The notes: a model not told the origin generated them from the sequence alone. Counted from the stretch's first letter, positions 11,226-62,144 are shown. The stretch is DNA of 64,000 bases from Acidobacteriota bacterium (GCA_037388505.1 JARRKC010000013.1:9999-73998); one strand, 5' to 3'. Made by a program: numbers and translations.

Positions 11226-13388
11226 ATGAAGAGACTGATGCTCACTTTGGCCCTCGTCCTGCCCTTACTGTGGACCAGTTGCACGATACAGGAGAGTGAG
11301 AAGCTCAACTACCCGACGGCCAGACGCGACGATATCGTCAACGACTACTTCGGGACCAAGGTGCCGGCACCTTACGAGTGGATGGAGGACCTCAACAGTC
11401 CGGAGGTCCAGCAGTGGGTCACCGCCGAGAACAAGCTGACGGACGACTACTTTTCCAAAGTCCCCATCCGGGGATGGATCAACCAGCGGTTGACCGATCT
11501 TTGGAATTATCCCAAGGCGGGCGTGCCCGATGAGGAAGGCGGCCGGCTCTTCTTCCGAAAGAACAGCGGACTGCAGAACCAGTCCGTCGTCTACGTCCAG
11601 GATGGCCTGCAAGGGGAGGCACGGGAGCTTTTGAACCCCAACGTGCTCTCACCGGATGGATCTCTTGCTCTGGCGGGCTACGTTCCTTCGCCCGATGGCA
11701 AGCTCCTCGCTTATCAGCTTTCCGAAGGAGGTTCGGACTGGCAGACCATTCACCTCCTGGATGTCTCCACGGGAAAGACTCTGGACGACGCCGTGCGTTG
11801 GGTGAAGTTCTCCGGCGTGGCCTGGACTAAGGACAATCGGGGCTTCTTCTACTCCCGGTACCCGGAACCGCCGCAAGGCAAGGCCATCAGCCAGCAGGTG
11901 ACCAACCAGAAGCTCTATTATCACCGGCTCGGTACGGCGCAGGACCAGGACAAGCTGATCTACCAGCGCGAGGACCTGCCGGGCTGGATCGTCGAGGGTG
12001 CAGTGTCCGACGACGGCAGGTACCTGTATGTCCTTCTGGTCAATGGAACGGCTCACATGAACGAGCTCTTCTACGCCGACCTCGGCAACCCCACCAAACC
12101 GAACATCGGCGCCAAGTTCCAACCTCTGTACACCAGGAACGACGCCCTCTATGAACCCGTAGGTGACGATGGCAATACTCTGTATCTTCACACCACGCTG
12201 GACGCCCCGCGCGGTCGGATCGTGGCGACCACGTTCTCCGACCCCTCGCCCGAGAATTGGCGCGAGGTCGTACCTCAGCGAGAAGGAGTCATCAGCGGCG
12301 CTCTGTTGGCCGACCGACAGATCGTCGTCCTCTCCGAGGTCGTGGCCAAGAGCCAACTGGAAGTTTTCGATGAGAAGGGGGAGCATCACCGGCAGATCGA
12401 TCTACCCGGCATCGGGTCGGTATCCGGACTCAGCGGTCATAGCGGATCTGCGGATCTGTACTTCGGTTTCACCTCTTTTCTCGCCCCCGGAGCCGTTTAT
12501 CACTACGATCTGAAATCGGATCAGCGTTCGACCTTCTTTGCACCCAAGGTCGACTTCGATGCTTCGAAATACGTGACCGAGCAGGTCTTCTACGCCTCCA
12601 AAGACGGCACGCAGATCCCCATGTTCATCACTCACATCAGGGATCTTCAGCTCAACGGCAAAAATCCCACTATCCTCTATGGATACGGCGGCTTTGACAT
12701 TACCGTGAGTCCCAGCTTCAACCCCATCTACCCGGTCTGGCTCGAGTTGGGCGGTGTCTATGCAGTGCCCAACCTGCGAGGCGGAGGCACCTACGGGGAG
12801 AAATGGCACCAGGCCGGCATGCTCGGCAACAAGCAGAATGTTTTCGACGACTTTGCCTGGGCCGCCAAGTACCTCATCGATCAGAAATATACGGACCGCG
12901 ACCACCTCGGCATCCAGGGCTATTCCAACGGCGGTTTGCTGGTGGGGGCCTCGATCACCGAGCATCCCGAACTGTTCGGCGCCGCCTACGCCGGAGCGGG
13001 GGTGCTCGACATGTTGCGCTATCAGCGCTTCTCCGGGGGCGACCTCTGGGCTCCCGAGTACGGCACCTCGGAAAACGAGGAGGCTTTCAAATGGCTGTAT
13101 GCCTACTCGCCGCTCCAGAACGTCAAGGATGGTGTTTGTTACCCGCCTACGATCATTACCACGGCAGACCATGATGACCGCGTCGTTCCCAGTCACTCCT
13201 ACAAGTTCGCCGCTGCCCTCCAGCACGCTCAGGGTTGCGACAACCCGGTGTTGATTCACATTGCGACCAACACGAGTCACGGCTACATGCCCACGGACAA
13301 GCGCATCTCCCAGACCGCCGACGTGTGGGCTTTCGAAGCCTGGAATCTGGGCGTCAAGCAGCCGCCCGCTTCGGCAGACGGAAAGTAG
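11226..13388 (+). CDS. Prolyl oligopeptidase (S9A prolyl endopeptidase), secreted/lipoprotein
   Basis: Beta-propeller N-terminal half plus alpha/beta-hydrolase C-terminus with catalytic Ser in GIQGYSNGGLLVGA, and Asp/His downstream. Signal peptide; AGGAGA SD. Confidence 0.9.
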   Translation: MKRLMLTLALVLPLLWTSCTIQESEKLNYPTARRDDIVNDYFGTKVPAPYEWMEDLNSPEVQQWVTAENKLTDDYFSKVPIRGWINQRLTDLWNYPKAGVPDEEGGRLFFRKNSGLQNQSVVYVQDGLQGEARELLNPNVLSPDGSLALAGYVPSPDGKLLAYQLSEGGSDWQTIHLLDVSTGKTLDDAVRWVKFSGVAWTKDNRGFFYSRYPEPPQGKAISQQVTNQKLYYHRLGTAQDQDKLIYQREDLPGWIVEGAVSDDGRYLYVLLVNGTAHMNELFYADLGNPTKPNIGAKFQPLYTRNDALYEPVGDDGNTLYLHTTLDAPRGRIVATTFSDPSPENWREVVPQREGVISGALLADRQIVVLSEVVAKSQLEVFDEKGEHHRQIDLPGIGSVSGLSGHSGSADLYFGFTSFLAPGAVYHYDLKSDQRSTFFAPKVDFDASKYVTEQVFYASKDGTQIPMFITHIRDLQLNGKNPTILYGYGGFDITVSPSFNPIYPVWLELGGVYAVPNLRGGGTYGEKWHQAGMLGNKQNVFDDFAWAAKYLIDQKYTDRDHLGIQGYSNGGLLVGASITEHPELFGAAYAGAGVLDMLRYQRFSGGDLWAPEYGTSENEEAFKWLYAYSPLQNVKDGVCYPPTIITTADHDDRVVPSHSYKFAAALQHAQGCDNPVLIHIATNTSHGYMPTDKRISQTADVWAFEAWNLGVKQPPASADGK

Positions 13389-37269: not shown

Positions 37270-37532
37270 CCGAATCCGCGCAAAGCGCATCCACGTCAGT
37301 GCATGAACGAAGTGAGTGCCGCACGGATGCCCAATTGCCAGGGCCTGACCGTTCCCGGCAAAGCCCACCGTCCGTCGAATCGTCACGGTGCCACTCGTGC
37401 TCATTTTGGGGAGACAAGTCAGGAAGTCGGCGACCGTGCAGGGGGTCGCTCACGTCGTTCGCGCACCGACGCTTCCCCGTGACCCGTCCACTGCCCGAAG
37501 CACTGATGCCGCTGACGCTGGCGCTGCGGCGC

Positions 37533-38075
37533 TCACCAGGTCGGTGGCGGCGGCTCGTTGTGCTCCGTTCCCAGCCAGTCGATGCCGATGTCGACCCGCC
37601 GGCGCAGGATCAGCGCAAGCTGTGCTGCGTGATGCTGGGTGTGTCGCAGACTGTTGATCAGGAACTCCCCGACGTTCAGCTTGTACCACCAGAACCCGCA
37701 GCGCTCGCGGGCGCGCTGCTCGGTCAGCGCGGCGAAGACGCCCCTGCACTTTTCCGTGCAGTGATCGGCATACTCCAGCATCTGTTGTCTGCTGTAACAC
37801 TCATCGGGCGTGGTCACGATTCCCGCGTACTCTTTGTAGTCTCCCGGTAGGAAATGATAGTTGTCGACATGATAGTCCCGGGCTCGAAAGCTCTCCAAGT
37901 CATCCGACAAGTAGAGATCGCAAAAGAACAGCGCATGATAGGCAATATGCCAAAAAGGCGTGCCGTCGGACCGATCGTCCCACAGTTCGTCGGGACAGGC
38001 GTCGATCGTGTTACGGAGCATCTCGATCGCCGTGACATATTGTCGACCCATGACTTCGTTCCAGAACGCCGACAT
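37533..38075 (-). CDS. DinB_2/YfiT-like four-helix-bundle metal-dependent hydrolase-like protein
   Basis: His triad-like pattern (HIAYHALFF … HTQHHAAQL). Start moved to ATG 38075 (SD GGGAAGGGGG); the ORF-track start at 38435 is an upstream extension. Confidence 0.5.
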   Translation of the reverse strand: MSAFWNEVMGRQYVTAIEMLRNTIDACPDELWDDRSDGTPFWHIAYHALFFCDLYLSDDLESFRARDYHVDNYHFLPGDYKEYAGIVTTPDECYSRQQMLEYADHCTEKCRGVFAALTEQRARERCGFWWYKLNVGEFLINSLRHTQHHAAQLALILRRRVDIGIDWLGTEHNEPPPPTW

Positions 38076-38262
38076 ATCTGCCCCCTTCCCTCTGTTCCGG
38101 ATCAATGAAGACTGATGCCTACTCTGGCAGCTTTGACAAGTCCGCACAAGTCTCGTTCCGAACAGCGAAGACGAGGCATATGGAAGCGTTCGGAGGAAAA
38201 TCCTACACCGCTTATATTCAAGTGCAGACAGGGACCTGCCTTCGTAGTAACGTCTCAGGATT

Positions 38263-39417
38263 ATGATCCTCCTCCGAGTACTCGTCTGCCTGGGGTTTCT
38301 CCTCTCTCCTTCTCTGACCGCAAACAACGAACTACCGCCGCTGAAAGTCACGGCCTGGCTCCAGGCGCCGTCAGGCTTCAGCGGAGAGTGGAGCACACTG
38401 CGCGGCAAGGTCGTCGTCGTGGAGTTCTGGGCCACCTGGTGCTCCCCCTGCGTTTCCGCCCTGCCTCACTTGAACCAGTTGGCCGAGGAGTTTCAGAACG
38501 AAGATGTCCTGTTTCTCGCGATATCCGAAGACGACCCGAAACGTCTGGAGGGATTTCTGGCGGGTCAATCCGTTCGTGCCATTATCGGAATCGATGCCGA
38601 CCGCAAGACCTGGAAGGCCTTCGATGTCCCGTCGATCCCGCATACCGTCATCATCGACGCGAAGGGACGGCTGATCGGTGCGACAACACCGGAGCAGCTT
38701 TCAGCGGAACGCCTCCGGAGGGTCCTCGCCGGGGAAACCGCAAAGTTTCCGCCGAAGGAGGGAATACGCTGTGATCTCCAGTGGGACGAGGATTCCATCG
38801 AGTGGCAAGATGGTGTTCGACCGACGACCTACGCGATCATCAAGCCGATCAAAACCACCATGGGTGGCTATCTGCCTCAACCGGGCCACCTGACCGCGGA
38901 TGGAGTCCCTCTCAGGACTCTCGTTCAGATCGCGTATCAGACCGATCCCTTCCACATCGAATGGAACCTGCCCAGGGACGACCGGACCTACCGGGCTGCC
39001 TTTCGCGTTCCGTCAGGGCGGGAGCAGCGGCTCTTCCCCCTCATTCGGCAGACACTCGCGGATGCCTTCGGCTTCCGCGCACGCTGGGAGGAACGCCTGC
39101 ACGAGGTTCGTGTGTTGCGTCGCATCGAAGGAGGTTCGATCGTGCCCGAGTCCCGGGCCGATGAGGATCTGGTCCAGGTGATGAAAGGTCGGATTACTTT
39201 ACGCCGCCAACCTGTCAGCAGGCTCTGCCAGATTCTCACGCAGCATGGATTGGGGGCTATCGTCATCGACGAGACGGGAATGAACGGACTCTACGATTTC
39301 GATCTTCCCTACCAGCCGGGCCAACCCGAAGTGACGCTTGGGGCCCTCAATGAAGTTGGTCTCGAGGCGGTCGATGCTCGCCGCACGATTCGCATCCTCG
39401 TGGTCGATCGGCAGTAG
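38263..39417 (+). CDS. Secreted TlpA/ResA-like thioredoxin (WCSPC) fused to TIGR03435-like (Acidobacteria-specific) C-terminal domain
   Basis: Signal peptide; EFWATWCSPCVSALP CxxC; C-terminal region ending …GALNEVGLEAVDARRTIRILVVDRQ resembles the TIGR03435 ending (…GLKLE…VLVID…). Confidence 0.65.
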   Translation: MILLRVLVCLGFLLSPSLTANNELPPLKVTAWLQAPSGFSGEWSTLRGKVVVVEFWATWCSPCVSALPHLNQLAEEFQNEDVLFLAISEDDPKRLEGFLAGQSVRAIIGIDADRKTWKAFDVPSIPHTVIIDAKGRLIGATTPEQLSAERLRRVLAGETAKFPPKEGIRCDLQWDEDSIEWQDGVRPTTYAIIKPIKTTMGGYLPQPGHLTADGVPLRTLVQIAYQTDPFHIEWNLPRDDRTYRAAFRVPSGREQRLFPLIRQTLADAFGFRARWEERLHEVRVLRRIEGGSIVPESRADEDLVQVMKGRITLRRQPVSRLCQILTQHGLGAIVIDETGMNGLYDFDLPYQPGQPEVTLGALNEVGLEAVDARRTIRILVVDRQ

Positions 39418-41608: not shown

Positions 41609-44263
41609 ATGGGAGTCTTCTGGAATCGGCTTCGCAGTCTGTTGCGCAATGGAAGACTGGACGGCGAGCTGGACGAAGAGCTCGAGTTTGTTTTTCAGAT
41701 GGAGGTCGACGCCAACCTCGAGCGTGGCCTGAGCCCGGAAGAAGCAAGGCGGCAAGCACGGATCACCCTGGGGAGTCTCGAATCGATCAAGGAGGCCCAT
41801 CGTGACGCCCGGGGCATCCCCTGGCTCGACAACCTCCGCCGGGACACGATTCAGGCTGTCCGCTCCTATCGTCGAACCCCTTTGTTCACCGGCGTCGTCC
41901 TGATCACCCTGGCTGTGGGAATCGGCTTCTCCACCTTCGTGTTCAGCCTGATGGATGGGATTCTGTTGAAGCCCCTGCCCTATCCGCACGCCGAGAAGAT
42001 CGTCAGGCTCTTCCGAAATGTCGAAAGTCCCTTCTATCTGCGGGAATTCGCCTCCTCTCTCTATCTCGAGGACCGCGCGAACCAACCGGACAGTATCGAA
42101 GCCGTCGCGACCTTCCGACAATCCGGATTCAACATGGCCGGATCCGGCGAGCCACTTCGGGTCTCAGGAGCCTGGGCTACGCCTTCGTTCTTCAACGTGC
42201 TGGGGATCCCTCCTTATTTGGGAAGGACCTTCTCGCGGGACGATGTCAAAAGCGGTCGGTCCCTCGCCGTACTGAGCTACGCACTTTGGCAAGGAGCCTT
42301 TTCAGGAGAGCGATCTGCAATTGGGAGGAAGATCCTCCTCGACAACAAGCCATTCGAAATCATCGGCGTGATGCCCGAGGGCGAAGACCTTCTGGACGGC
42401 AGCTCCTACCAGCTTTGGCTGCCCCTGGATCTCAGCGCCCGCCCTCGGATCCGCGACGGCTTTTCGATCGACCAGGCCCAGGCCGAGGTCGATCTGTGGG
42501 CCGCGCGCATGCGCCGTACCTATCCGGGAGTGAAAGAGGAACTCGGACTCCATATCGAGCCCTACTTCGACGACCGATTTGCCGAGGCGGAGACGCACCT
42601 CTGGATCCTCTCATCTGCCGTCGCCTTAGTCCTGCTGCTGACCTGCGTGAACGTCGCGGGCCTCCTGCTTGCCAGGGGTTCGAGGCGAGGCCGGGAAGTC
42701 GCCCTCCGCTCGGCTCTTGGCGCGGGTCGGTCCCGACTGGTCGTGCAATTCCTGACGGAGAGTCTGCTCCTCGCCGTGCCGGCCGGCATCCTGGGGCTGG
42801 GCTTGTCCTATCTTGCGCTGCAGACCATGCGGATGTGGTCTCCCAACGGGCTGCCCCGTCTGGACAACGTTACCCTGGGTTGGTTCGAACTTCTGTTCGC
42901 CGTGACACTGGCCCTGGTTTCCTGCTTGTTGCTGGGCCTGGGTCCGGCGCTGAGAGACTCCCGTGCAAGACCGATGACGGCGTTGAAACAGAGCAACTTG
43001 ACGACCACCGGTGGCAAGAACCGGGGACGATGGAATTCGGTCCTGGTCGCCGGACAGATCGCTCTGGCTCTGATCCTGATGTTGGGAGCCGGCCTCTTTC
43101 TCAAGAGCTACTGGGAACTCTCCCACGTCGAGCTCGGCTTTCAGACCGAGAACGTCCTCACGGCCCGGCTGGATCTCTCTCAGGCGTTCACCTCCGAGGC
43201 GGAACGGGGTTCGTTGTCGCCCATCAACGATCGCCAGCAGGAACGGATCGTGGATTTCACGGGAAGGGTCATGGATGAACTCCTGAGTCTTCCGGGGGTC
43301 GAGTCGGTGGGGGTCGCGGTAGCTCCCCCACTGGGAGACTGGACGATCGGTTTGAGCGGTCTCGAAAGCGAAGACTCCAAAACTGGAGACGTGGGAAGCT
43401 TCACCGCCCGCGCTTCAGCTGTCAGCCCTGGCATCTTCGAGGTGCTGGGACTCCACCTGCTCGAGGGCCGGTTCTTCGATGCCCGCGACACTCGGTCGGG
43501 TGAATCGACACTGATCGTCGATCGGATGGTTGCAGACCGGTTCTGGCCCGACCAGAGCCCGCTCGGAAAGCGCCTGAAGTTCGGTAAACAGTGGCGGCGA
43601 ACGGTTGTCGGAGTCGTCGGGAGCATCCATTCAGCCGGCCCCAGTCGGCCTGCCGATCCGAAGGTTTACTTCCCCTTTGCCCAGTACCCCCTCCTGTCCG
43701 ACGTGACGTTCCTCGAGAAGGGCCGTATCGGCACGCCTCAGTTCGGGCGGGAGATCAAGAGGATCGTCGCCGGTTTAGAGCCGAATCTGCCGGTCTACGG
43801 TGTCGAAACGCTCGACGATCGCCTCGATCTTTGGAACTCGACCGAGAAACTCGTCAGCCTGCTCTTAGCCTTGTTCGCCGTTGTCTCCCTGTTTCTGGCC
43901 GCGGTCGGCCTCTATGGAACACTCGCCTTTCTGGTATCGGAAAGAACTCAGGAGGTCGGCATCCGCATGTCGCTCGGCGCCGATCGCGCCCGGATCTTTC
44001 GGATGATCACCTTCAGGGGCCTGTCCCTTGTTCTCGCGGGCTTCATTCTCGGATCGATCGGGGGTCTGGCCGTCAACTACTTCCTGGCCGGGCTGGTCTC
44101 CTGGGACCCGAACGCTCAGCTGATCTTTCAAGCGAAGGCCCTCGACATCTCCGTCTTCGCAGCCGTCGGCCTGCTCCTCCTCCTGATCGGTTTCCTGGCC
44201 TGCGCGATCCCGGCCCTCCGGGCCGCACGCCTGGACCCCAACCGGGCGCTGCGCTATGAGTGA
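41609..44263 (+). CDS. ADOP-family duplicated FtsX/MacB-like permease (TIGR03434-type)
   Basis: N-terminal …LRSLLRNGRLDGELDEELEFVFQMEVD…LSPEEARRQARITLGS… followed by two FtsX permease halves. ATG 41609 preferred over TTG 41591. Confidence 0.85.
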   Translation: MGVFWNRLRSLLRNGRLDGELDEELEFVFQMEVDANLERGLSPEEARRQARITLGSLESIKEAHRDARGIPWLDNLRRDTIQAVRSYRRTPLFTGVVLITLAVGIGFSTFVFSLMDGILLKPLPYPHAEKIVRLFRNVESPFYLREFASSLYLEDRANQPDSIEAVATFRQSGFNMAGSGEPLRVSGAWATPSFFNVLGIPPYLGRTFSRDDVKSGRSLAVLSYALWQGAFSGERSAIGRKILLDNKPFEIIGVMPEGEDLLDGSSYQLWLPLDLSARPRIRDGFSIDQAQAEVDLWAARMRRTYPGVKEELGLHIEPYFDDRFAEAETHLWILSSAVALVLLLTCVNVAGLLLARGSRRGREVALRSALGAGRSRLVVQFLTESLLLAVPAGILGLGLSYLALQTMRMWSPNGLPRLDNVTLGWFELLFAVTLALVSCLLLGLGPALRDSRARPMTALKQSNLTTTGGKNRGRWNSVLVAGQIALALILMLGAGLFLKSYWELSHVELGFQTENVLTARLDLSQAFTSEAERGSLSPINDRQQERIVDFTGRVMDELLSLPGVESVGVAVAPPLGDWTIGLSGLESEDSKTGDVGSFTARASAVSPGIFEVLGLHLLEGRFFDARDTRSGESTLIVDRMVADRFWPDQSPLGKRLKFGKQWRRTVVGVVGSIHSAGPSRPADPKVYFPFAQYPLLSDVTFLEKGRIGTPQFGREIKRIVAGLEPNLPVYGVETLDDRLDLWNSTEKLVSLLLALFAVVSLFLAAVGLYGTLAFLVSERTQEVGIRMSLGADRARIFRMITFRGLSLVLAGFILGSIGGLAVNYFLAGLVSWDPNAQLIFQAKALDISVFAAVGLLLLLIGFLACAIPALRAARLDPNRALRYE

Positions 44264-51006: not shown

Positions 51007-52839
51007 ATGAAACACCGTCATCTCCACACATTTTCGATTGGATCGGCCGGCGTCCTCCTTTTCCTCCTGATCGGAGGCACCTGCGAATCCAGTCTCGCAG
51101 AGATCATCGTGCCCGGCGAGCGTGTGCACTGGGGTGACACGATTCACGTCGTCGTGAAGCCGAATCCGGAGAGGGGGCTCTATCCCGGCGACCGAGCCTG
51201 GCTGACAGTCGGCTTCTGGCGCCAGGGAGTGGAATTCATCCGATACGAGCCGCTCCAATCGGAGGGAGGGCAGTTCAGCTGCGATCTGACTCTGCCGGAC
51301 GACTGGGAGTACGCGAACGCCAGCGTCGTGACGACTGAGAGGTGGATCCCAGGCGGAAAGGGCCTGGCTGCCCTTGATCGAAACGGAGAGATTCCCCCGG
51401 GCGCACCCGTTCTCGAGACCAGCTTCATCTGGAACGGCTCCTCCCGGCGAGCCGACTGGGAAGCCGTTGCGAAAGCTGAACTGTCGCGGTACCCGACTCT
51501 CTGGTGGCTCTATCCCGAGGTTTGGGGACTTCATTTCATGGCGAGCGGAGGCAAGGTTCCCGTCGAGCTGATCCGAGATCAGCTCCCGTTCCTCGAACAG
51601 GCCGACGAGAGCGCCGTACTCCTGCGGGTATTGATGCAGGCAAACTGGGAGCTCGGAGAGACCACCGAGGCACTGCGGCAGTTGGAGCGTCTGTGTGAGC
51701 ACTACCCGGACTCCCGCGATACGATTCGAGCACTGAACAAAGCCGGCTATGAGATTTTCAAGAGGGGATTGCTCCCGGTTTCGAATGAGAGATGGAAAGC
51801 TCTGGCGGCTCAGGCCGTCAACGGTGCCCCCGACAACCCTGCGTTGCGAGTTTATGATATCGGTCTCTACTCGAACGAAGCGATTACGCTCGCTTCGTTC
51901 CGTCGGCTTTTCGAAGCCTGGACGAAGGATGACGGCGAGAGTCCCTACCCTTACATCCTACTGGCTCGAGCTCTCGCCCGCGAAGAGACGGAATTGGACC
52001 GAGCAGAAAAGCTTCTCACTCGAGGTCTCGAACTGTCGTTCGCCGTGCGACCGGTCCTGCTCTACGCACGGTACCCCGGCCTGGCTTTTCGTCTCCGTTC
52101 CGATTTGCGTGCTCGACGAGCCGACACCGCCGGAGCGCTTGCCGATATCCGGGCTGCGCAAGCTCTGGCTCGGAAGGGTGATCCGACGGACATCGAAACA
52201 GAGGCCGAAATCTGGCTTCAGGCGGGCAGGCCCGTCAAGGCGGAAACGGTGGCCCTGGAAGCGTACCGCAAGGGATCCCTCGAGGCCGAGGCATTCGTCA
52301 AGGATCTCTACGCGACGCGCACCGGTCGCTCGAACGGAGCGGAGGAGTATTTCTGGAGCCGGCTGACGGAGGGTGCCGACCGGCCCGGCGATCCTTCCGA
52401 CGAACCGGAAGACGCTCCCCATTTCGAGGGCGTGACCCTGGAGGGCCGTCGAGTCGACAACGCCTCTCTGAAGGGCAAGGTGGTCGTCCTGAACTTCTGG
52501 TTCACCACCTGCGGCCCCTGCATCGGAGAAATGACGGAGCTGAACGAGCTGGTTCGGGACTTCGGCGACCGGGTCCGCTTTCTGGCCTTCACCCACGAAC
52601 CACCCGAGATGGTTCGGACGTTCCTCGAGAGTCACGAATTCGATTATGAGATCGTCCCGAATGCGCGCGAGATCGAGGAATCCTTCGGCATCGGCTCACA
52701 CCCGACGCACGTTCTCATCGATCAGAAGGGCAAAGTCCGCTGGCAGGGCCTGGGAGCCAACCCCGACAACCTCAAGCGCCTCCGCGCGACTATCCAGCGA
52801 GTCCTGACAATAGGTGACACGCACGTAGTGAGTCCGTAA
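51007..52839 (+). CDS. Secreted TPR-like helical domain + C-terminal TlpA-like thioredoxin (CGPC) protein
   Basis: Signal peptide; C-terminal VVVLNFWFTTCGPCIGEMTEL… thioredoxin fold. Confidence 0.55.
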   Translation: MKHRHLHTFSIGSAGVLLFLLIGGTCESSLAEIIVPGERVHWGDTIHVVVKPNPERGLYPGDRAWLTVGFWRQGVEFIRYEPLQSEGGQFSCDLTLPDDWEYANASVVTTERWIPGGKGLAALDRNGEIPPGAPVLETSFIWNGSSRRADWEAVAKAELSRYPTLWWLYPEVWGLHFMASGGKVPVELIRDQLPFLEQADESAVLLRVLMQANWELGETTEALRQLERLCEHYPDSRDTIRALNKAGYEIFKRGLLPVSNERWKALAAQAVNGAPDNPALRVYDIGLYSNEAITLASFRRLFEAWTKDDGESPYPYILLARALAREETELDRAEKLLTRGLELSFAVRPVLLYARYPGLAFRLRSDLRARRADTAGALADIRAAQALARKGDPTDIETEAEIWLQAGRPVKAETVALEAYRKGSLEAEAFVKDLYATRTGRSNGAEEYFWSRLTEGADRPGDPSDEPEDAPHFEGVTLEGRRVDNASLKGKVVVLNFWFTTCGPCIGEMTELNELVRDFGDRVRFLAFTHEPPEMVRTFLESHEFDYEIVPNAREIEESFGIGSHPTHVLIDQKGKVRWQGLGANPDNLKRLRATIQRVLTIGDTHVVSP

Positions 52840-54158: not shown

Positions 54159-54545
54159 TCACATGTAATTGACGAGTCGCAGTTGGGGAACCCGTTCGAA
54201 ATGACCCTGATCCGACGTCACCAGCTCGGCCTCGGCTTCGAGTGCCGTCGCCGCAATCAGGATGTCAAAGTCCCCGATGCTTTTCCCCTGCCGGCGCAGA
54301 TACCTGCGGACACGACTCCCTATCCTGCAGACATTCTCATTGACCTCGAGTCTGACGAAAGGCTCCAGAAAGTCCTCGCCGTCTTTCGTTCGCTCGTAAC
54401 CTTCGAGGAACTCGAGCATGCTGATGACTGAGATGGCAAACTCATCATCCTCATGGAGTGTGAGGAATTGTTGCGCTGGACCCGGCTCTCCGGCCGCAAG
54501 CTCCCGTTGCAGATCAATCAGAAAGGTGGTGTCGAGAACCTTCAT
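54159..54545 (-). CDS. vapC: VapC PIN-domain toxin
   Basis: MKVLDTTFLIDL… with acidic PIN residues. ATGA overlap with the upstream antitoxin. Confidence 0.8.
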   Translation of the reverse strand: MKVLDTTFLIDLQRELAAGEPGPAQQFLTLHEDDEFAISVISMLEFLEGYERTKDGEDFLEPFVRLEVNENVCRIGSRVRRYLRRQGKSIGDFDILIAATALEAEAELVTSDQGHFERVPQLRLVNYM

Positions 54546-54802
54546 TTCGTTGGATCCTGCTTCCATCGTGAAGGGCTTGCGGTGCGGACCTGCTCGACAC
54601 CGCCCTTCCAGTACTCCAGAGCCCGGCGATCCGCCTGTTTCACCCCTCGATTCCGCAACGCTCGCAGAACCGACCGACCCGACGCATCTGGAGGTCCGAA
54701 ACGGGCTCGCCGCACCACCTCGGAAAAGGACTCACCAGGTCTCTTGGCGGAGCGAAGCTTCTCGTAGGCGTCAAGCTCGAGGGAAATGGTCTTCGTTGAC
54801 AT
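54542..54802 (-). CDS. vapB: VapB-type antitoxin
   Basis: MSTKTISLELDAYEKLRSAKRPGESFSEVVRRA…; 87 aa. TATTAT -10-like hexamer 7 nt upstream of the ATG (possible leaderless mRNA). Confidence 0.65.
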   Translation of the reverse strand: MSTKTISLELDAYEKLRSAKRPGESFSEVVRRARFGPPDASGRSVLRALRNRGVKQADRRALEYWKGGVEQVRTASPSRWKQDPTK

Positions 54803-54971: not shown

Positions 54972-55024
54972 GGTGAAAGGGACAGACTGATTCTCGGTTG
55001 GTGAAAGGGACAGGCTCGTTCTCG
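54972..55024 (+). repeat. Tandem pair of a ~25-nt locus-specific repeat (GGTGAAAGGGACAGRCTSRTTCTCG)
   Basis: Copies at 54972-54996 and 55000-55024; see also 56692-56748, 61262-61284 and 61971-62144. Confidence 0.7.
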
Positions 55025-55098
55025 CTCCCCCTTGGGACTTCCCGGGATCTCCGGAGCGGATGGGTCGCGGCGCAATCTCAAGACATCCGCAGCCGGCC

Positions 55099-56334
55099 CT
55101 ATGGCTTCCGCTTCAGCTCGACACGCCGGTTCAGAGCCCTTCCCTGCGCGGTCTCGTTACCGGCCACCGGCCGGTCCTCTCCGTAGCCCTGAGGCTCGAG
55201 TCGTCCGGAATCGATTCCCTGTTCGACCAGCCACGCCACAACGGAGCGGGCGCGGCGCCGCGAAAGATCCCGGTTGTAGGCGGCGTCGCCCGTGGAGTCG
55301 GTGTGACCTTCAACGATGAGAGCGAGCTCCGGTTGCTGTTCCATCACGTTCAGCACTTCCTGAAGCGTAGCCTCAGAGTCGGAGCGCAGCCGGTCCGAAT
55401 CGAGGTCGAAGTGAATGCCATAAACGATGGCCCGGCCACTCTCCCGGAGCGACTTCTGGAGGGATCCCTCGTGTTGGAGTTGACAGGAGGGTCGTTCGCC
55501 GGGCGCGGCGCGGGAGCCCACCCAGAACCCTCTGTAGGCCCCCTTCTCATACCAGAGTCCATTCAGTTGGTCGCCCGTCGAAGAGAGCACCATGAGAGCT
55601 GTTCCGATCTGCTGTCCCTCGTTTTCGCGCCACTCGAACTGGATGACCCGACCATCGAGATTCCCGCTGAGCGAGCCCTGGTCCCAGTCATAACAGCCGC
55701 TGATACTGGACCCGTCCTGCGCGAAGAGAACAAGGCCGAAGTTGGTCCGATAGACCCCCGAAACCCGAACCTCCGACGCTTCTTCTTCCAGTTGTCGACC
55801 ATACGCTTCCAGTTCCATGAGCTCGGTGTAGCTTTCCTGACCCCAGTTCGACAGGATGACAATCTTGAGCCATCGAGCCTGCGTACCTGCCGCGAACTCG
55901 AACTGAGTGCGGCTTCCCTTTTCGGCCTCCACTCCGAGGACTTCGGAAAAGGGGCCCGTAGGACCTGCACTGGAAGTCCACACTCCGATTCGGCGCGCCG
56001 AGATCCCCGGATAAGAGTCTTCCTGAGCGGTCGAGTTGTCGAACACGATCGAGGTGAGCTGACTCGGTCGGTCCAGTTCGATGACGACCTGATGCGGAAA
56101 GGCGGCACCTTCAGCCGTGCACCAACCCTGTTCCGCCGTGTCGTCGAGTACCAGGAGAGCCGCCCACTTCTCATTGAACTGGCTCGACTGAGAGAGCACA
56201 ACCGCTCCTTCGGCAAGATTCAGAAGGTCAACGGAGGGCTGCCCGTTGTTTTGCTCCGCTCGTGTCGAACCGATACAAAGAGAGAAGCAGACGAAGAGAA
56301 CCAAATGGCACGATGGCCGGACAGAAATGTTCAT
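55099..56334 (-). CDS. OmpA-family peptidoglycan-binding protein with N-terminal F5/8 type C (discoidin-like) domain
   Basis: C-terminal OmpA_C motif (…EGHTDSTGDAAYNRDLSRRRARSV…NRRVEL); signal peptide from ATG 56334. Confidence 0.7.
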   Translation of the reverse strand: MNISVRPSCHLVLFVCFSLCIGSTRAEQNNGQPSVDLLNLAEGAVVLSQSSQFNEKWAALLVLDDTAEQGWCTAEGAAFPHQVVIELDRPSQLTSIVFDNSTAQEDSYPGISARRIGVWTSSAGPTGPFSEVLGVEAEKGSRTQFEFAAGTQARWLKIVILSNWGQESYTELMELEAYGRQLEEEASEVRVSGVYRTNFGLVLFAQDGSSISGCYDWDQGSLSGNLDGRVIQFEWRENEGQQIGTALMVLSSTGDQLNGLWYEKGAYRGFWVGSRAAPGERPSCQLQHEGSLQKSLRESGRAIVYGIHFDLDSDRLRSDSEATLQEVLNVMEQQPELALIVEGHTDSTGDAAYNRDLSRRRARSVVAWLVEQGIDSGRLEPQGYGEDRPVAGNETAQGRALNRRVELKRKP

Positions 56335-56691
56335 TGTCCTGAGGAATGCACCACAAATGCCGCCTCCTGGGAATTGACCTCGGACTGCTCCTTTAGGCAA
56401 AACGACACCTCCTCGGCTGACGACTGGTCAATACGAACTGGCGGATCGCGTTCATCATATACAGCGTCCCTGTCGGACCGACGGGAGCCTTGCCCTCTGA
56501 AGCATGCGGTGGATGCCGATCACATAGCTCCGTCACCGGTCACCCATTCACCCGAATTCACCAGGCGCAGCGTCAGTGCGCGAACGCACGTGAGCGATCC
56601 CGCTCACGGTCGCCGGCTCCCTGTCTTCCCCCGGGGCACGAGCACCGGCGGCAATCTACCGCATCGGCACGAGCCGAAGAACCAAGGTGGT

Positions 56692-56748
56692 CCAAAAGGG
56701 ACAGGTTCGTTCTCGCCCGAAGAGTCGAAAGGGACAGGCTGGTTCTCG
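56692..56748 (+). repeat. Second tandem pair of the GAAAGGGACAGGYTNGTTCTCG repeat
   Basis: Copies at 56692-56715 and 56726-56748, between the divergent OmpA-like and lipoprotein/TlpA genes. Confidence 0.7.
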
Positions 56749-57022
56749 TCAGGTACGGGCGGCTCTCATCTCGATAGGATCCGCCGAGTCCAGTCGTTGG
56801 TGTGCGTTGACCTTGCTGCGGCCGTTCTTCTGCTTTGAGATTCCCGTAGGGCGAGCCCCAGTTTCGGAAGCCCGGCCTCTCGGGCTGTCATGAAATTGGT
56901 CGACTCGTTGCGAATGCCCGGATCTGGCGATATAGGATCTTGATCATATCGTCTTTTCGCGGACAGTAGGAGAGAAAGTACTATCCGACTCGGGCCAGGG
57001 CCTGACGAGCAGGAAGGGGATC

Positions 57023-57358
57023 ATGAGACGATCCAAGGCTTCATCTTTCTTCATCATGGTATCGCTGTTGGGTTGCGCGGCGGCATGCCGATCGGGAAAA
57101 CCCGATGACTTGACGCCCCGGTATCTTTCCTCACCTACCCCACAGAACCTGCAGGCCCCGCCACTTACTCTCCGCAAACGGATCGTTCTCCGGGATTGTG
57201 AGAGTCTGTCGATGCAGTACGTTCTCACGGTTACTCCCGCCGAAGATGCTTATTACCTGTTCACCTCGCAGGGAATCGGTCAAATCGATTCTACGGGGCG
57301 ACTGGTGCGGCTCCTGGGGGACGACCTCGTCAAGCAGCGAACGCAGGACGTTCGGTGA
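57023..57358 (+). CDS. Lipoprotein N-terminal fragment (possible 5' part of a frameshifted lipoprotein-TlpA gene)
   Basis: Lipobox MVSLLGCAAAC. Protein-like sequence ends at TGA 57358, while a different frame carries protein-like sequence from ~57366 onward. Confidence 0.35.
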   Translation: MRRSKASSFFIMVSLLGCAAACRSGKPDDLTPRYLSSPTPQNLQAPPLTLRKRIVLRDCESLSMQYVLTVTPAEDAYYLFTSQGIGQIDSTGRLVRLLGDDLVKQRTQDVR

Positions 57359-58319
57359 TCCAAGCCATGAGTATAGAAAGAGTTTTCTACCTCGGTTCCT
57401 CCTCGCAACGGATTCCCGTGCGGAGATCTTCGCCGTCAATGCTATTGATTACGAGATTAGAAAGTATGACAGCCGAGGTGACTACATCGGCGACTTCCGC
57501 CTCTGCGAGGATGAGGACTATCGACCTCCTCCAGAATCCGTCGACGTTGAGCGGCTCAGCACCGACCTCGACTGGCGGACTGATTGGGCCAACACCTGGA
57601 CCCGGCTCAAGAACGTAGAAACGATCGACGACCGTTACCTGATCGTCCAATTGACGTCCCCCGAGTCGCAAAGGTACCGCCTGCAATTCTATTCCCTCGA
57701 CGGAGCGGTCGCCTTCAAGCCAATCGACTGGGATCTGGAACTGGCCGATGCCGATCAAGCGGGAAATCTCTACTTCGAGGAGAGGGACGCGGGCGGCGGC
57801 GTCACGGCTCTGGATGTCTACGGACTCGGACCCAAGAGGGACGAAGCTCGGCAGACGCTGGTTCCTGCTGTGACGGGCATGACAAATCGACGGGCTGAAT
57901 CTCCGGTGCCGGCGCCTGAATTCTCGGTCACTGATCTCGAAGGAAACGAGTTCTCGTTGGAGAATCTACGAGGACGCGTGGTTCTGGTGACTTTCTGGTC
58001 CATCGGCTGTTCTCCTTGTCGAGCGGAGGTACCTCGACTGAACGCACTGGCAGAGGAGTTCAAGGGTCTGCCCGTCACTTTTCTCGCGCCGACACCGGAT
58101 GGAGCCAAAGCGCTGCAGCAATTCCTATCAACGACCGATTTCCGGTTCCGGGTTATCAATTATGCGGGCACGGACTTGGCGGATCGCTTCGGTGTCCACG
58201 GCAGTATCCCCGTTCATTTCCTGATCGATAAGAAAGGGAATGTCGATTCGGTGATCAACGGCGCCGTAGTGAACGACGAGCGGCTCGGTCGGCGAGTCAG
58301 GCAGTTGCTTGACCGCTGA
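57198..58319 (+). CDS. TlpA/ResA-like thiol:disulfide oxidoreductase domain protein (upstream region probably frameshifted, so start unreliable)
   Basis: C-terminal thioredoxin fold VVLVTFWSIGCSPCRAEVPRL. The first ~55 codons of this ORF (Cys/Ser/Arg-rich) look non-coding. Confidence 0.5.
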   Translation: MRVCRCSTFSRLLPPKMLITCSPRRESVKSILRGDWCGSWGTTSSSSERRTFGDPSHEYRKSFLPRFLLATDSRAEIFAVNAIDYEIRKYDSRGDYIGDFRLCEDEDYRPPPESVDVERLSTDLDWRTDWANTWTRLKNVETIDDRYLIVQLTSPESQRYRLQFYSLDGAVAFKPIDWDLELADADQAGNLYFEERDAGGGVTALDVYGLGPKRDEARQTLVPAVTGMTNRRAESPVPAPEFSVTDLEGNEFSLENLRGRVVLVTFWSIGCSPCRAEVPRLNALAEEFKGLPVTFLAPTPDGAKALQQFLSTTDFRFRVINYAGTDLADRFGVHGSIPVHFLIDKKGNVDSVINGAVVNDERLGRRVRQLLDR

Positions 58320-58435
58320 CCAGGTCTATCACTGGAGAAGAATAAACAGGGTCTTCGTTCAGAGTCAGTACCAACTCTCTTCCGACTGGGCGTCTCTCTC
58401 CTCGGATTCGGTGGACGCAGAATGGGTAGGAGAGC

Positions 58436-61243
58436 CTACCTGGCCCTACGGTGCTGCAAAGCCCGGAGGATGGCATCGATCACATCGTCAAGATGCTTTC
58501 CGAGATCTTGCGCAAGGAATCGCAGTACCAGATAGCCGTTCTCCTGCAGCAGATAGTCCTTGCGGCGATCGCGACGATAAGCGTCCGTGTCGGCGACGTG
58601 TTGGGGGCCATCGACTTCGAGGACCAACCTGGACTCAGCACAGAGGAAGTCCACCTCCATCGCTCCCCGTCCGTCGAAGGGGATCGGCAATGTCACGTTC
58701 AGTTGAAACCGCCCGGCGGTCTGGGGGAGCGTTTCCAGACGCCGGAAAAGGAAGGCCTCACTGCCACTTCGAGCCCGGCCGACCTCCGTCGCATCGGCGG
58801 ACGGAGTTCTGGTTGCGCGGACGAACAGATCGGCCAGCGGCTTATCCACGCCGTCTCGAACCAGCCTCCGGACACTGGCTGCATAATCCTCTTTCCAATC
58901 GGGATCGACGGGGAGCGACACGTCTGTGGGCCAGCCGGGCAACGCGTGGGCCGGCAGGATGATCTTGTATCCCGCCGCCTCGTAGCCTTTGCAGCGTCGG
59001 TCGAACATCCGCGCCAGCATAGGCACGTTCAGATCGGCATAGTCATAGACTCGAACTTCACGCTTCCTTTCATGCAGACGATGGAGCCGGCCGAGATACT
59101 GTGCGATCGTCCCCCGCCACGAGACGGGAAGAGTTAGAAACAGAGTATCCAACCGGGCATCGTCGAATCCTTCTCCGATGAAGCCACCGGTCGCCAAGAG
59201 AACACGCTCCTCAGTCTCCGGGATCGCGGCCAGCTGGGCTCGTGCTTCCCGAAGGGCCTTGCGTCCCATGCCGCCCCTCAACGTGACCAAGTGCGTCACT
59301 CGATCCGACAACGCCCGAGCCAGGATATCGAGATGCTCGTTGCGTTCGGTCAGAACGATGGGCGAGCGACCTTCTCGGACCGTCTGCACGACGTCCTCAC
59401 AGATGGCGCGGTTTCTTCTTTCATCGACGGTCAACTCATCATAGAGATCCTGAAATCGCAATCGGACATCGGGATCCGCAGGTCGAAGCGCACGAAAATC
59501 CGTAGGACGAACCAGCACCTTATGATCGAAGGGACGTCGGGCAGCCTGCCTTCTGGGATCCACGCGGTATCGGATCGGACCGCACTGCATGAAAATGATG
59601 GGATGGTGGCCGTCCTTGCGGATGGGCGTCGCCGACAGGCCGAGCACGAACTTCGACTTCGCCTCACGTGCAGCCAATTCGAAGCTGTGTGCAGGAATGT
59701 GGTGGCATTCGTCGACGATCAAATGGCCATATCGGCTCACGAGGTCGTCGACCTCCCCCTTGCGGACCAGGCTCTGGATCACCGCCACGTCCAGGAGACC
59801 CGTGGGCTTCTTTCGTCCTCCGCCGATGGTACCGATGCTCAACCTGGAAAGGCCGAGGAACGAGCTCAGTCTCTCGACCCACTGCTCGAGCAACTGTCTC
59901 CGATGAACGATCACCAGGGTATTGACACGGCGCCGGGCGATCATCCACGCGGCCACGACCGTCTTTCCGAAAGCCGTCGTCCCGGACAGCACCCCGATGT
60001 CGGAGACCAGCAGCGCGTCGGCGGCGAGCTTCTGCTCCGGCCGCAGGCGGCCCTGGAATTCGACATCCAGCGGCTCACCGCAGTAGCGTTCCTCCCGGAT
60101 TGCGGTTTCGATCCCAAGATCGGAGAGAAGCTGCATCAGGTCCTCCAAACATCCCCGTGGAAGGCCGACGTGCCGCGGGTAGTCTCGGGCACATCCGATG
60201 ATGCGAGGTTTGCGGAAGGTGGGAAGCCGCATCGCCTGGGCCCGGTAGAACTCGGGGTTCTGAAAGGCAGCCAGACGGATCAACCGGTTACGTAAGGCTG
60301 GCGCCAAGTCCTCTTTGGGAATGAAGATCTCATTTCCCAGAACGATCTCGAGCCGTTCCGGCAGCGGACCCGTGACGGGTGGGCCGACCCATCGGCGTGA
60401 CGGAGACGTCTTCCAGGGAGTCGCATCGTCGTCATCGGGCGCGAGGCGCACGCCGAGGATTCTCCCGCGGGCTTCCGCTTCGTCGACAACCGCTTCCACT
60501 TCAGCGCGCGTCATCTTCCGGATTTTCGACAGGAAGCTCCACTGATCCGAATAAGGAACAAACTGGTCGTCAACAAAGACTGAGTTTCCACCTTCCCTGG
60601 GTCCCTTTTGAAGGGGAAGGGCGATGAGATTGCCGAATCCGCCCTTCGGCAGGGTATCCTGATTCGGAAAGAGACGATCATACGAATCCAGGCCGATGTC
60701 CGGGCAACGCTCCATGGTTTCGGTCAAGATGAATGTGCCGAGCGAACGTGCCATTCGCGCGGGAATCGACTCATCGAAGAAGAACCACACATGGGCGCCG
60801 CCGCCGGACCGCGAGCGTTCCATGGCTGCCGGAAGATCAAACACGCGGCAGGTCTGAAGGAAGGCCAGTGCGTCCTCCTGCCAGTTCTCCTTGTCGAAGT
60901 CGGCAGCCAGAAAGAAGCAGGTTTCGTCCCGGAGCATCGGGTAGACGCCGACTACGCAATCCTGTTCCCGATCGTCTCGTCCCTCCAGATGGAAGCGGAT
61001 GACGTCGTCCGTCACGGCCAGAAAGCGCTGATGTGGACAGCGACTGCATTTGATCTTCGGCTTCTCGCACACGCCGGCCACCCACTCGTTCCCACAAGCC
61101 GGAGAGTATCCGGACCGGCCCGTCCTGCGGCTTTCGAATCGCCGCGGATACACGTCCTCGCGTCCTCGGAACAAGGACCGAAAGAGCGCGATCTTTACTT
61201 CCGGAGGAGAATGAAGATCGACGGCTAACGGCACTTCATCCAC
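58436..61243 (-). CDS. Multidomain protein: Zn-ribbon + archaeo-eukaryotic primase-polymerase (Prim-Pol) + XPB/Rad25-like SF2 helicase + C-terminal DUF559 (Vsr-like endonuclease fold)
   Basis: AEP motifs I FLAADFD, II SGGGAHVWFFF, III GLDSYD. Helicase motifs I GTTAFGKT, II VDECHH, III LSATP, VI QYLGRLHR. DUF559 …LVLEVDGPQHV…YRRDRRKDYLLQENGYLVLRF…. Confidence 0.8.
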   Translation of the reverse strand: MDEVPLAVDLHSPPEVKIALFRSLFRGREDVYPRRFESRRTGRSGYSPACGNEWVAGVCEKPKIKCSRCPHQRFLAVTDDVIRFHLEGRDDREQDCVVGVYPMLRDETCFFLAADFDKENWQEDALAFLQTCRVFDLPAAMERSRSGGGAHVWFFFDESIPARMARSLGTFILTETMERCPDIGLDSYDRLFPNQDTLPKGGFGNLIALPLQKGPREGGNSVFVDDQFVPYSDQWSFLSKIRKMTRAEVEAVVDEAEARGRILGVRLAPDDDDATPWKTSPSRRWVGPPVTGPLPERLEIVLGNEIFIPKEDLAPALRNRLIRLAAFQNPEFYRAQAMRLPTFRKPRIIGCARDYPRHVGLPRGCLEDLMQLLSDLGIETAIREERYCGEPLDVEFQGRLRPEQKLAADALLVSDIGVLSGTTAFGKTVVAAWMIARRRVNTLVIVHRRQLLEQWVERLSSFLGLSRLSIGTIGGGRKKPTGLLDVAVIQSLVRKGEVDDLVSRYGHLIVDECHHIPAHSFELAAREAKSKFVLGLSATPIRKDGHHPIIFMQCGPIRYRVDPRRQAARRPFDHKVLVRPTDFRALRPADPDVRLRFQDLYDELTVDERRNRAICEDVVQTVREGRSPIVLTERNEHLDILARALSDRVTHLVTLRGGMGRKALREARAQLAAIPETEERVLLATGGFIGEGFDDARLDTLFLTLPVSWRGTIAQYLGRLHRLHERKREVRVYDYADLNVPMLARMFDRRCKGYEAAGYKIILPAHALPGWPTDVSLPVDPDWKEDYAASVRRLVRDGVDKPLADLFVRATRTPSADATEVGRARSGSEAFLFRRLETLPQTAGRFQLNVTLPIPFDGRGAMEVDFLCAESRLVLEVDGPQHVADTDAYRRDRRKDYLLQENGYLVLRFLAQDLGKHLDDVIDAILRALQHRRAR

Positions 61244-61261
61244 AGTTGTAGTGTACCTTTT

Positions 61262-61284
61262 GAAATAGGGACAGGCTGCTTGAG
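61262..61284 (+). repeat. Single copy of the GGGACAG repeat family (GAAATAGGGACAGGCTGCTTGAG), 19 nt upstream of the Prim-Pol/helicase start
   Basis: Seen in sequence. Shares GAAATAGGGACAG with the inverted copy at 62008-62022. Confidence 0.6.
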
Positions 61285-61294
61285 TTCGAGCGAG

Positions 61295-61786
61295 CTACAG
61301 CCTCTCCCGGCAGAACAGAACGAAGTCCGTGGAGGCGGCAGGAAGACCGGATTGTCTCAGCAGGGTCGTAATCTGTCCGCGATGGTAGCTCGAGTGATTG
61401 ACCACGTGAAACAGGAGTTGCCACAGAGGTTGGGCGAACGGCTCCCCGGACGTATTTCGATAATGCAGGACTTCGCCCAGTGATGCCTCGGTCAAACCGG
61501 ACAGGAATTTGGCCATTTCACTGTCGACTTCTCGCCACCGTTCTCGGATCTTCGGAATGGACGACGAGTTCCAGCCCTCCGGTATCCCGGAGGGGGATGT
61601 TCCGGTCCAGCGTTCGAGCCAGACCCACTCGGCCGAGAGAATATGGTCGAGTGTTCCCTGGATTGACGCAAAGCTGCTCGAAAGGTCGCGCTGCAGCTCG
61701 TCCGAGCCGACGGCCGAGACAACATCCAACATGCGCCGGTTGGCCCACCCATTGTAGCCATAGAATTCTCGAATCTCTTTGAGCAT
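61295..61786 (-). CDS. DinB_2/DUF664-family (damage-inducible DinB-like four-helix bundle) protein
   Basis: …YNGWANRRMLD…HILSAEWVWLERW…HVVNHSSYHRGQI… typical of the DinB/YfiT family. Confidence 0.7.
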   Translation of the reverse strand: MLKEIREFYGYNGWANRRMLDVVSAVGSDELQRDLSSSFASIQGTLDHILSAEWVWLERWTGTSPSGIPEGWNSSSIPKIRERWREVDSEMAKFLSGLTEASLGEVLHYRNTSGEPFAQPLWQLLFHVVNHSSYHRGQITTLLRQSGLPAASTDFVLFCRERL

Positions 61787-61970
61787 GGGTCTCCTTCTCC
61801 CGCAGACAGGCTGGAGGAATCCCTGTCAGGTGCAATTACTCTGTCAGGTGTTGAGGAAGGAATGGACTTGACCCGTGTCCCGTGCTGCTTGAAGTCGTCA
61901 ATCATGAACGTAGCGTTTCAGATGCCGTAACAAGAGACCACATCGGAGCCGTCTTCAGCTTGCCGTGCAG

Positions 61971-62144
61971 CCTGTCCCTTTCCTACGTTCCTGACCGCGT
62001 AAACGAGGCTGTCCCTATTTCCGTCCTGTTGTCTCCTGCCTTTACCTTTCGCCCCGGCTGCAGTCTGTCCCCTTCCCCTGCCCGCGCTCGCGTGAATGAG
62101 TCTGTCCCCTTCTTCCGTCGTGAAGGAGTCTGTCCCTTTCTTGG
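61971..62144 (-). repeat. Array of five copies of the GGGACAG repeat (plus-strand form RGYCTGTCCCYTTYC) within a 780-bp non-coding gap upstream of dinB_2
   Basis: Copies at 61971-61983, 62008-62022, 62063-62078, 62098-62116 and 62126-62144 (spacings 37, 55, 35, 28 bp), all in the same orientation and inverted relative to the copies at 54972-61284. Confidence 0.7.

Follow-up and report, generated by a model that had tools for sequence, protein, structure and literature searches.

Ten copies of a short intergenic motif in an Acidobacteriota genome as probable REP-like repeats cognate to a RAYT-type transposase

We have analysed a stretch of 64,000 nucleotides (nt) from an Acidobacteriota bacterium (GCA_037388505.1, JARRKC010000013.1:9999-73998; from here on, the window) in which ten copies of a ca. 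23-nt motif, with consensus GAAAGGGACAGRCTSNTTCWCG, occupy four consecutive intergenic gaps between 54974 and 62141. The question raised by this locus is what such a repeat family represents. A preliminary description had offered two answers: an array of operators for a single regulator, possibly SOS-like, or the multi-site ends of a transposon-like element. We consider it probable that the ten copies are instead REP-like (repetitive extragenic palindromic) repeats of an Acidobacteriota lineage, cognate to a conserved transposase of the RAYT type (REP-associated tyrosine transposase, of Y1/HUH fold). We place them in this class because the same motif flanks every RayT-like gene examined, and the protein encoded by these genes has the fold and the catalytic motifs of a RAYT.

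The motif and the RAYT-type gene that it flanks

At one of the loci found in other genomes (L033), a 313-residue open reading frame (ORF) is bracketed by two inverted pairs of the motif. The protein carries the motifs THYHSIV and YVELNAVRAGLV, and has matches short of the curated cut-offs to NCBIfam REP_Tyr_transpos (E 9.6e-8) and to Pfam Y1_Tnp (E 0.007). It has 355 homologues, several of which are named "REP element-mobilizing transposase RayT" (JGI) and many of which carry PF01797. The arrangement was the same at all six RayT-clade loci (L033, L035, L036, L037, L038 and L072), with sense-strand copies upstream of the gene and opposite-strand copies downstream; at the five loci beyond L033 (57-81% identity) they lie within about 400 nt on each side. 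The flanked protein is conserved, with 311-313 residues and the motifs HxH and Y..ELNAVRAGLV. Among 48 homologues the first His of HxH and the Y, E, L and N of the second motif were invariant, while its A, V, R, A, G and last V were kept in at least 90%. A profile of the clade had no match in the PDB at the sequence level, and the assignment needed fold comparison: for one homologue modelled with AlphaFold (mean pLDDT 84), the best PDB match is 4ER8_A (E 4e-5, TM 0.67), followed by the TnpA proteins of IS608 and ISDra2. The 4ER8 structure is that of the Escherichia coli REP-associated tyrosine transposase (YafM) bound to a REP hairpin (PMC3479197), and what defines REP/RAYT systems is a gene with inverted copies of its own repeat on either side (PMC2817692, PMC3116915).

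The relationship between gene and repeats can be seen in one genome with two RayT paralogues that are 99% identical. What they share is confined to the gene itself with 90 nt on its upstream and 60 nt on its downstream side, and the flanking arrays differ in sequence and spacing. The arrays are thus not the ends of a unit copied together with the gene and, since they lie outside the duplicated unit, the relationship resembles that of a RAYT rather than that of an insertion sequence (IS). The identical segment, of about 1,090 bp between non-identical arrays, suggests either gene conversion or arrays that already existed when the gene inserted between them. Some genomes have two or three RayT paralogues with 95-100% identity (P0192/P0193, P0194/P0198/P0199 and P0223/P0224), which is unusual for domesticated single-copy RAYTs. 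Loci L038 and L072 are on the same 5.17-Mb contig.

The distribution of the motif was examined with the pattern ARRGGGACAGRCTSNTTCWCG in one genome per species, and the loci were then rescanned by weight matrix. This gave 31 loci, of which 13 were from Acidobacteriota. Outside this phylum all were single matches, as expected by chance. Within it, eight of the 13 hold arrays of 2-7 copies, on the same strand or mixed, with an irregular spacing of 29-77 nt, and a ninth (L017) has two single copies about 1.9 kb apart, one of them overlapping an ORF at the edge. With the exception of L017, the arrays of these nine multi-copy loci lie between real genes, in gaps that can be convergent (L006, L012, L014), tandem (L010, L025) or divergent (L033). 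Their neighbours are functionally unrelated and include, among others, YhhN, an enolase-like protein, a GntP permease, CobW, an M19 peptidase, a transglutaminase, GSDH, a cytochrome c protein and alanine racemase. The orientation of the arrays with respect to flanking transcription is inconsistent, in the window as well as in the other genomes; mixed orientation inside one array was found in L012 only. Two arrays on one chromosome are paralogous (L025 6233-6425 and L034 597-755, 84-88% over about 200 bp). Taken together, the presence in every type of gap, the unrelated neighbours, the paralogy and the mixed orientation point to a dispersed extragenic repeat and not to a regulon. One metagenome-assembled genome (MAG), JAUVSF01, has a RayT gene with flanking copies (L035) and also dispersed copies (L004, L017). 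The term "locus-specific" in the preliminary description is therefore correct for the 64-kb window, but the same motif is found in other Acidobacteriota genomes.

Three ORFs without Pfam or NCBIfam match were seen close to the motif. One of 459 residues (L017 1030-2409, + strand) is located between the outward-facing single copies, another of 702 residues (L034 778-2886, + strand) starts 15 nt past the last copy of a five-copy array, and the third (L034 2903-3841, + strand) is also near motif copies.

The family consensus obtained from 58 copies is CGAGAAAGGGACAGGCTGGTTCTCG, with complementary arms of 6 nt (CGAGAA/TTCTCG), and the strongest conservation falls on the 13-nt centre AGGGACAGGCTGG between the arms. 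Complementary arms of 5-7 bp are found only in this consensus and in some copies of other genomes, and some copies (L010, L012, L014, L069) fold at -5 to -6 kcal/mol. A covariation test for a hairpin on the 58 copies gave no signal above base composition.

The ten copies and their genomic neighbourhood

The window was searched with the pattern GRAARGGGACAGRCT, allowing up to two mismatches, and with 100 shuffles as control. There were 10 matches against 1.12 expected, a number that was reached in none of the 100 shuffles. Nine of them are copies of the family and the match at 51355 is due to chance; the remaining copy, with its core at 62009-62015, falls outside the pattern and was recovered by exact-core search and by a weight matrix made from the ten window copies. 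The scores of the ten range from 23.8 to 35.3 bits, and the scan of the whole 64 kb found no further site of at least 14 bits, including the remaining 57 kb. Direct reading, pattern search and weight matrix all agree with the preliminary description as to the ten copies, their places and their mixed orientation. It had also pointed to a stretch near 44019 as resembling the motif; this shares the core but nothing more, and scores 10.7 bits.

Array A1 consists of copy 1 (54974-54996, +; TGAAAGGGACAGACTGATTCTCG, 35.3 bits) and copy 2 (55002-55024, +; TGAAAGGGACAGGCTCGTTCTCG, 34.8 bits), 28 nt apart, in the gap between the stop of the OmpA-like gene (55099) and the start of vapB (about 54802). This pair had been described as lying between the OmpA-like gene and vapBC, and so it does, although vapB and vapC are on the minus strand and the gap is not convergent. 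The divergent gap that separates the OmpA-like gene from the small ORF and the TlpA-like gene holds array A2, made up of copy 3 (56693-56715, +; CAAAAGGGACAGGTTCGTTCTCG, 31.6 bits) and copy 4 (56726-56748, +; CGAAAGGGACAGGCTGGTTCTCG, 35.2 bits), with a period of 33 nt and not the 34 first reported. Copy 3 shares a 17-nt identity with a copy upstream of the RayT gene in L035. The single copy 5 (A3; 61263-61285, +; AAATAGGGACAGGCTGCTTGAGT, 27.2 bits), with a diverged 3' half, sits in the 51-nt gap from the stop of the DinB-family gene (61295) to the start of the primase-helicase gene (61243). Array A4 (61961-62141) is made up of five minus-strand copies with spacings of 37, 56, 37 and 28 nt. Closest to the start of the DinB-family gene (61786) is copy 6 (61961-61983, 23.8 bits, diverged 3' half), followed by copy 7 (61999-62021, GAAATAGGGACAGCCTCGTTTACG region, 30.0 bits), copy 8 (62054-62076, 25.2 bits, also with a diverged 3' half), copy 9 (62091-62113, AGAAGGGGACAGACTCATTCACG, 35.3 bits) and copy 10 (62119-62141, AGAAAGGGACAGACTCCTTCACG, 35.0 bits), the last two with a 28-nt period. 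Copies 1-2 (54975-55025) and copies 9-10 (62090-62140), both with this period, mirror each other as an inverted repeat of 51 nt with 76% complementarity.

A contig from a sister MAG (L001) is 99.9% identical over most of the shared locus, and 98.8% at the vapBC-side end, and retains all ten copies. In this contig the OmpA-like gene has, at its 3' end, a different stretch of 59 nt (13043-13101) where the window has 92 nt (55116-55207), so that the annotated OmpA-like ORF of the contig runs through both A1 copies; this may be genuine variation or an artefact of assembly. A second repeat is also present in the window, with two inverted copies of ca. 59 nt that are 85% identical (37411-37473, +, and 56569-56627, -). 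The latter adjoins array A2, upstream of the OmpA-like gene, and has a perfect 8-bp stem (CGTGAGCG-GGAT-CGCTCACG); the former lies in the gap where a 3-keto-disaccharide hydrolase gene and a DinB_2 gene converge. As RNA this repeat folds no better than shuffles, and it has no Rfam match.

The genes around the arrays lie on both strands. On the minus strand there are SfsA, vapC/PIN (54159-54566), vapB (start about 54802), the OmpA-like protein with an F5/8 type C domain (55099-56400, between A1 and A2 and itself outside the repeat family), a 935-residue fusion of AEP-TOTE primase, ResIII helicase and DUF559 nuclease (58436-61243), a helical-bundle protein of the DinB family (PF05163, annotated "dinB_2"; 61295-61786) and an arabinofuranosidase; a small ORF (57023) and, after it, a TlpA/ResA-like thiol-disulfide oxidoreductase of thioredoxin fold (57198-58319) are on the plus strand. 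No transposase domain was found among the genes between the arrays. The DinB family PF05163 is unrelated to DNA polymerase IV, and with "dinB_2" not being this polymerase there is no reason to expect SOS control here. This gene has copies 6-10 upstream on its own strand and copy 5 downstream on the opposite one, i.e., the geometry found elsewhere around RayT genes. The window contains several paralogous genes of the DinB superfamily and of AhpC/TSA (TlpA-like) thioredoxin fold (37533-39417, 51007-52839, 57198-58319 and 61295-61786), and at ca. 37.5-39.4 kb a DinB_2 gene stands beside a thioredoxin-fold gene, a pairing that recalls the DinB-family and TlpA-like genes near the arrays.

Other types of signal were also searched for. 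Rfam gave no RNA family in the whole window at gathering thresholds, nor in the 7.8-kb region at E <= 1. Between 54700 and 62500 there were no sigma-70-like promoter sites, and terminator-like sites were fewer than in shuffles, with none at the repeats. The only PADLOC labels were PrimPol-like for the primase domain and ZorB-like for the OmpA domain, and no system takes in the repeats.

Operators, iterons and mobile elements as alternatives

The operator explanation would have one transcription factor co-regulating vapBC and the OmpA-like, TlpA-like, primase-helicase and DinB-family genes in a stress or SOS-like regulon. It draws on the intergenic position of the four arrays, three of them upstream of a start codon, and on the conservation of the motif across genomes, which suggests that some protein reads it. 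However, in other genomes the arrays are also found in convergent gaps, where there is no promoter, and beside unrelated metabolic genes; neither in the window nor in other genomes do they keep one orientation to the gene downstream; the spacings of 28, 33, 37 and 56 nt are irregular and off the DNA helical repeat; and at the six RayT loci copies lie downstream of the gene as well as upstream. The motif is missing upstream of the primase-helicase gene's close orthologues (84% nt identity), and the DinB-family gene is not the SOS polymerase. We therefore abandon the SOS-like, one-regulator operator array of the preliminary description as improbable. Comparison by eye with known consensus sequences likewise discarded sigma-54 and extracytoplasmic function (ECF) promoters, whose spacing does not fit. 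A LexA box GTTC-N7-GTTC has been reported for Acidobacterium, and the motif does not contain it. A CRISPR-like array was rejected given the periods of 28-56 nt, the lack of cas genes nearby and the spread of the copies over four gaps. The primase-helicase gene itself offers another explanation, since the primase-helicases that replicate mobile elements often work on iterons close by: the repeats would be replication or recognition sites of this protein, with one copy 19 nt from its start codon and arrays surrounding the gene. The fusion has thousands of homologues at about 70% identity in several phyla, including Acidobacteriota and Planctomycetota (the NCBI annotation has a later start, giving 833 residues, but the homologues support the 935-residue form). 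Yet in five homologous loci (L002, L003, L069, L070 and L071; 71-84% nt identity) the motif was never found beside the gene. In L069 the one copy lies 540 nt downstream of it, and the other four have no intergenic copy, the only match of L071 (17 bits) being inside the primase ORF itself. The repeats are thus neither iterons nor operators of this gene and, as arrays in other genomes stand beside unrelated, non-primase genes, we find the iteron explanation extremely unlikely. In every one of these loci, even those with 84% identity, the DNA homology to the window is confined to the ORF (61221-58442) and the neighbours differ, so that, judging by sequence comparison, the fusion gene appears to behave as a single-gene mobile unit. 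Loci L069 and L071 (86-87% orthologues) share a conserved leader in the 300 nt upstream of the gene (e.g., GGTGACACGCACGC ... CTATCTGGCAGGGG) that the window lacks; there the start codon directly adjoins copy 5 and the DinB-family gene. A literature search for "TOTE" found nothing relevant.

The transposon-like alternative can take two forms. In one, the segment 54972-62144 is a non-autonomous, cargo-carrying unit whose inverted multi-site ends (two sites at the left, five at the right) serve the RAYT or another transposase acting in trans, the cargo being the OmpA-like, TlpA-like, primase-helicase and DinB-family genes. Points in its favour are the inverted repeat between the outermost pairs, which have equal periods, the placing of all left-hand copies on the plus strand and of all right-hand copies on the minus strand, the tie of the motif to a family of transposases, and the clear movement of the primase-helicase gene between genomes, with homology among orthologues ending at the ORF ends. 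Against this, a two-ended element leaves no place for the copies at 56693-56748 and 61263, which are internal; one-sided arrays with no inverted partner within 8 kb occur in other genomes; the loci retrieved include no empty site and no second block, the only other instance being the sister locus L001; and the primase-helicase orthologues move without the repeats. No target duplication is visible at the edges either, although a Y1 transposase would not be expected to leave one. The ends of Tn7, Mu and Tn402 are similar in having several sites of about 22 nt grouped at two places in opposite orientation. They differ in that the block in the window has internal arrays and no DDE transposase, TnsABC-like or TniABQ-like genes, while the motif sites also form one-sided arrays elsewhere and are associated with an enzyme of the HUH class. 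We found no sign of mobility for the 7-kb block, and we regard this form as quite unlikely. In the other form, the arrays would be the ends, or solo ends left by excised or decayed copies, of an autonomous IS200/IS605-like insertion sequence. The fold of the flanked protein is that of a Y1 transposase, two or three copies 95-100% identical in some genomes are IS-like behaviour, and the DinB-family gene occupies the place that the RayT gene has elsewhere. Short specific DNA elements next to a gene of Y1/HUH fold are indeed common to IS608, ISDra2 and the family described here. Nonetheless, in IS200/IS605 elements both end hairpins are on the same strand and move with the gene, unlike the present repeats, which are inverted, lie outside the duplicated unit, as seen in the near-identical paralogues, and are also found far from transposase genes. 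No transposase remnant was detected in the window, and we hold this form to be very unlikely. What survives of the transposon ends proposed in the preliminary description is the tie to a protein of a transposase family, which probably reads the motif, in a relation of the REP/RAYT kind and not that of Tn7-type ends.

Relation to known REP/RAYT systems

The REP-like, RAYT-associated repeats that we favour agree in several respects with the E. coli REP elements and their bacterial interspersed mosaic elements (BIMEs) with YafM (4ER8, PMC3479197; Nunvar et al. 2010, PMC2817692): extragenic repeats of about 23-25 nt, clustered between genes and in either orientation, with inverted copies around a Y1/HUH transposase gene (6/6 loci) that has no sharp IS ends and whose product has its best fold match in 4ER8. 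The REPIN/RAYT systems of Pseudomonas (Bertels et al., PMC3116915, PMC5581495) are also similar, with a RAYT gene flanked by its own repeats, which are extragenic and dispersed. There are, however, a number of observations that weigh against this classification. The most conserved part of the motif is its 13-nt centre and not a stem as in classical REPs, and hairpin potential is weak or absent in the window, where the ten copies as single-stranded DNA fold no better than shuffles. The GTAG or CGTC tag of classical REPs (cf. PMC3733652) is missing from the 58-copy consensus, and GTAG is found beside only a few copies. The arrays are mostly head-to-tail with irregular spacing, neither alternating as in BIMEs nor showing the inverted REP doublets (REPINs) of Pseudomonas. 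Copy number appears low: the complete 5.1-Mb chromosome CP070717.1 has three strict matches, each inside an array of 5-7 copies, which suggests tens of copies per genome where classical REPs have more than 100. A metagenome scan with the strict pattern gave 30 loci, about chance level, all single except L068. In the window, four arrays in 7.2 kb and none in the other 57 kb are a denser grouping than random dispersal predicts, and no RAYT gene was detected in the 64 kb or in the sister contig with a profile hidden Markov model of the clade (E <= 10). A generic REP-like element, which the preliminary description had named as speaking against its own proposals, is essentially what the data show, apart from the number of copies per genome, which looks low and not high.

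The metagenome loci covered a broad GC range and were without RayT. Viral contigs gave no match to the single-copy pattern and 28 to a tandem pattern, with no family-like arrays among them; one (L098) has three weak matches (16-20 bits) on the same strand, 36 nt apart.

Within the RAYTs, the low abundance of the flanking repeat resembles that of Groups 1 and 4, in which the flanking 16-mer occurs 12-14 times genome-wide (PMC5581495), a likeness in abundance only. The two or three near-identical paralogues of some genomes set the family apart from the typically single-copy RAYTs of Groups 2 and 3, and its protein of about 313 residues, with a long C-terminal extension, from the 165-residue chain of E. 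coli.

By analogy with the E. coli TnpA-REP and Pseudomonas REPIN/RAYT systems, the RAYT would bind the motif, probably as single-stranded DNA exposed in replication, and would cut and rejoin DNA at it, so that repeats are copied and amplified into intergenic DNA, where the host might afterwards tolerate or use them. The four arrays in the window would then be passive products between genes, not regulatory for the OmpA-like, TlpA-like, primase-helicase, DinB-family or vapBC genes, and the RAYT itself would be encoded elsewhere in the source genome. As to the dense clustering of the arrays, our guess is local spread or a lost RAYT locus, and recombination of gene cassettes at the arrays is also possible. 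In a more specific version, which we consider unlikely, the Acidobacteriota protein of 313 residues would belong to an undescribed RAYT branch that reads the 13-nt core and builds head-to-tail arrays, and these would act as joints of single-gene cassettes. The cassettes, each bounded by arrays, would be the OmpA-like gene, the TlpA-like gene together with the defence-type AEP-TOTE gene, and the DinB-family gene. This would account for the fourfold clustering and for the DinB-family gene being found in RayT geometry.

We know of no description of such repeats in the phylum Acidobacteriota, and our literature search on RAYT returned papers on other groups only. The 2017 survey of RAYTs does not mention Acidobacteria (PMC5581495). 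The present assignment, probable as we think it is, removes a tempting SOS-like operator reading from this locus, places the repeats in a recognisable class and would document the REP/RAYT pairing in Acidobacteriota. The motif would also account for RayT-bearing contigs being often short (most of those listed are 1-3 kb), and it can be used for repeat masking in searches for regulatory motifs in these genomes. A conserved core outside the stem, direct arrays, an apparently low copy number and a C-terminally extended RAYT are unusual features that could inform how RAYTs recognize their substrates.

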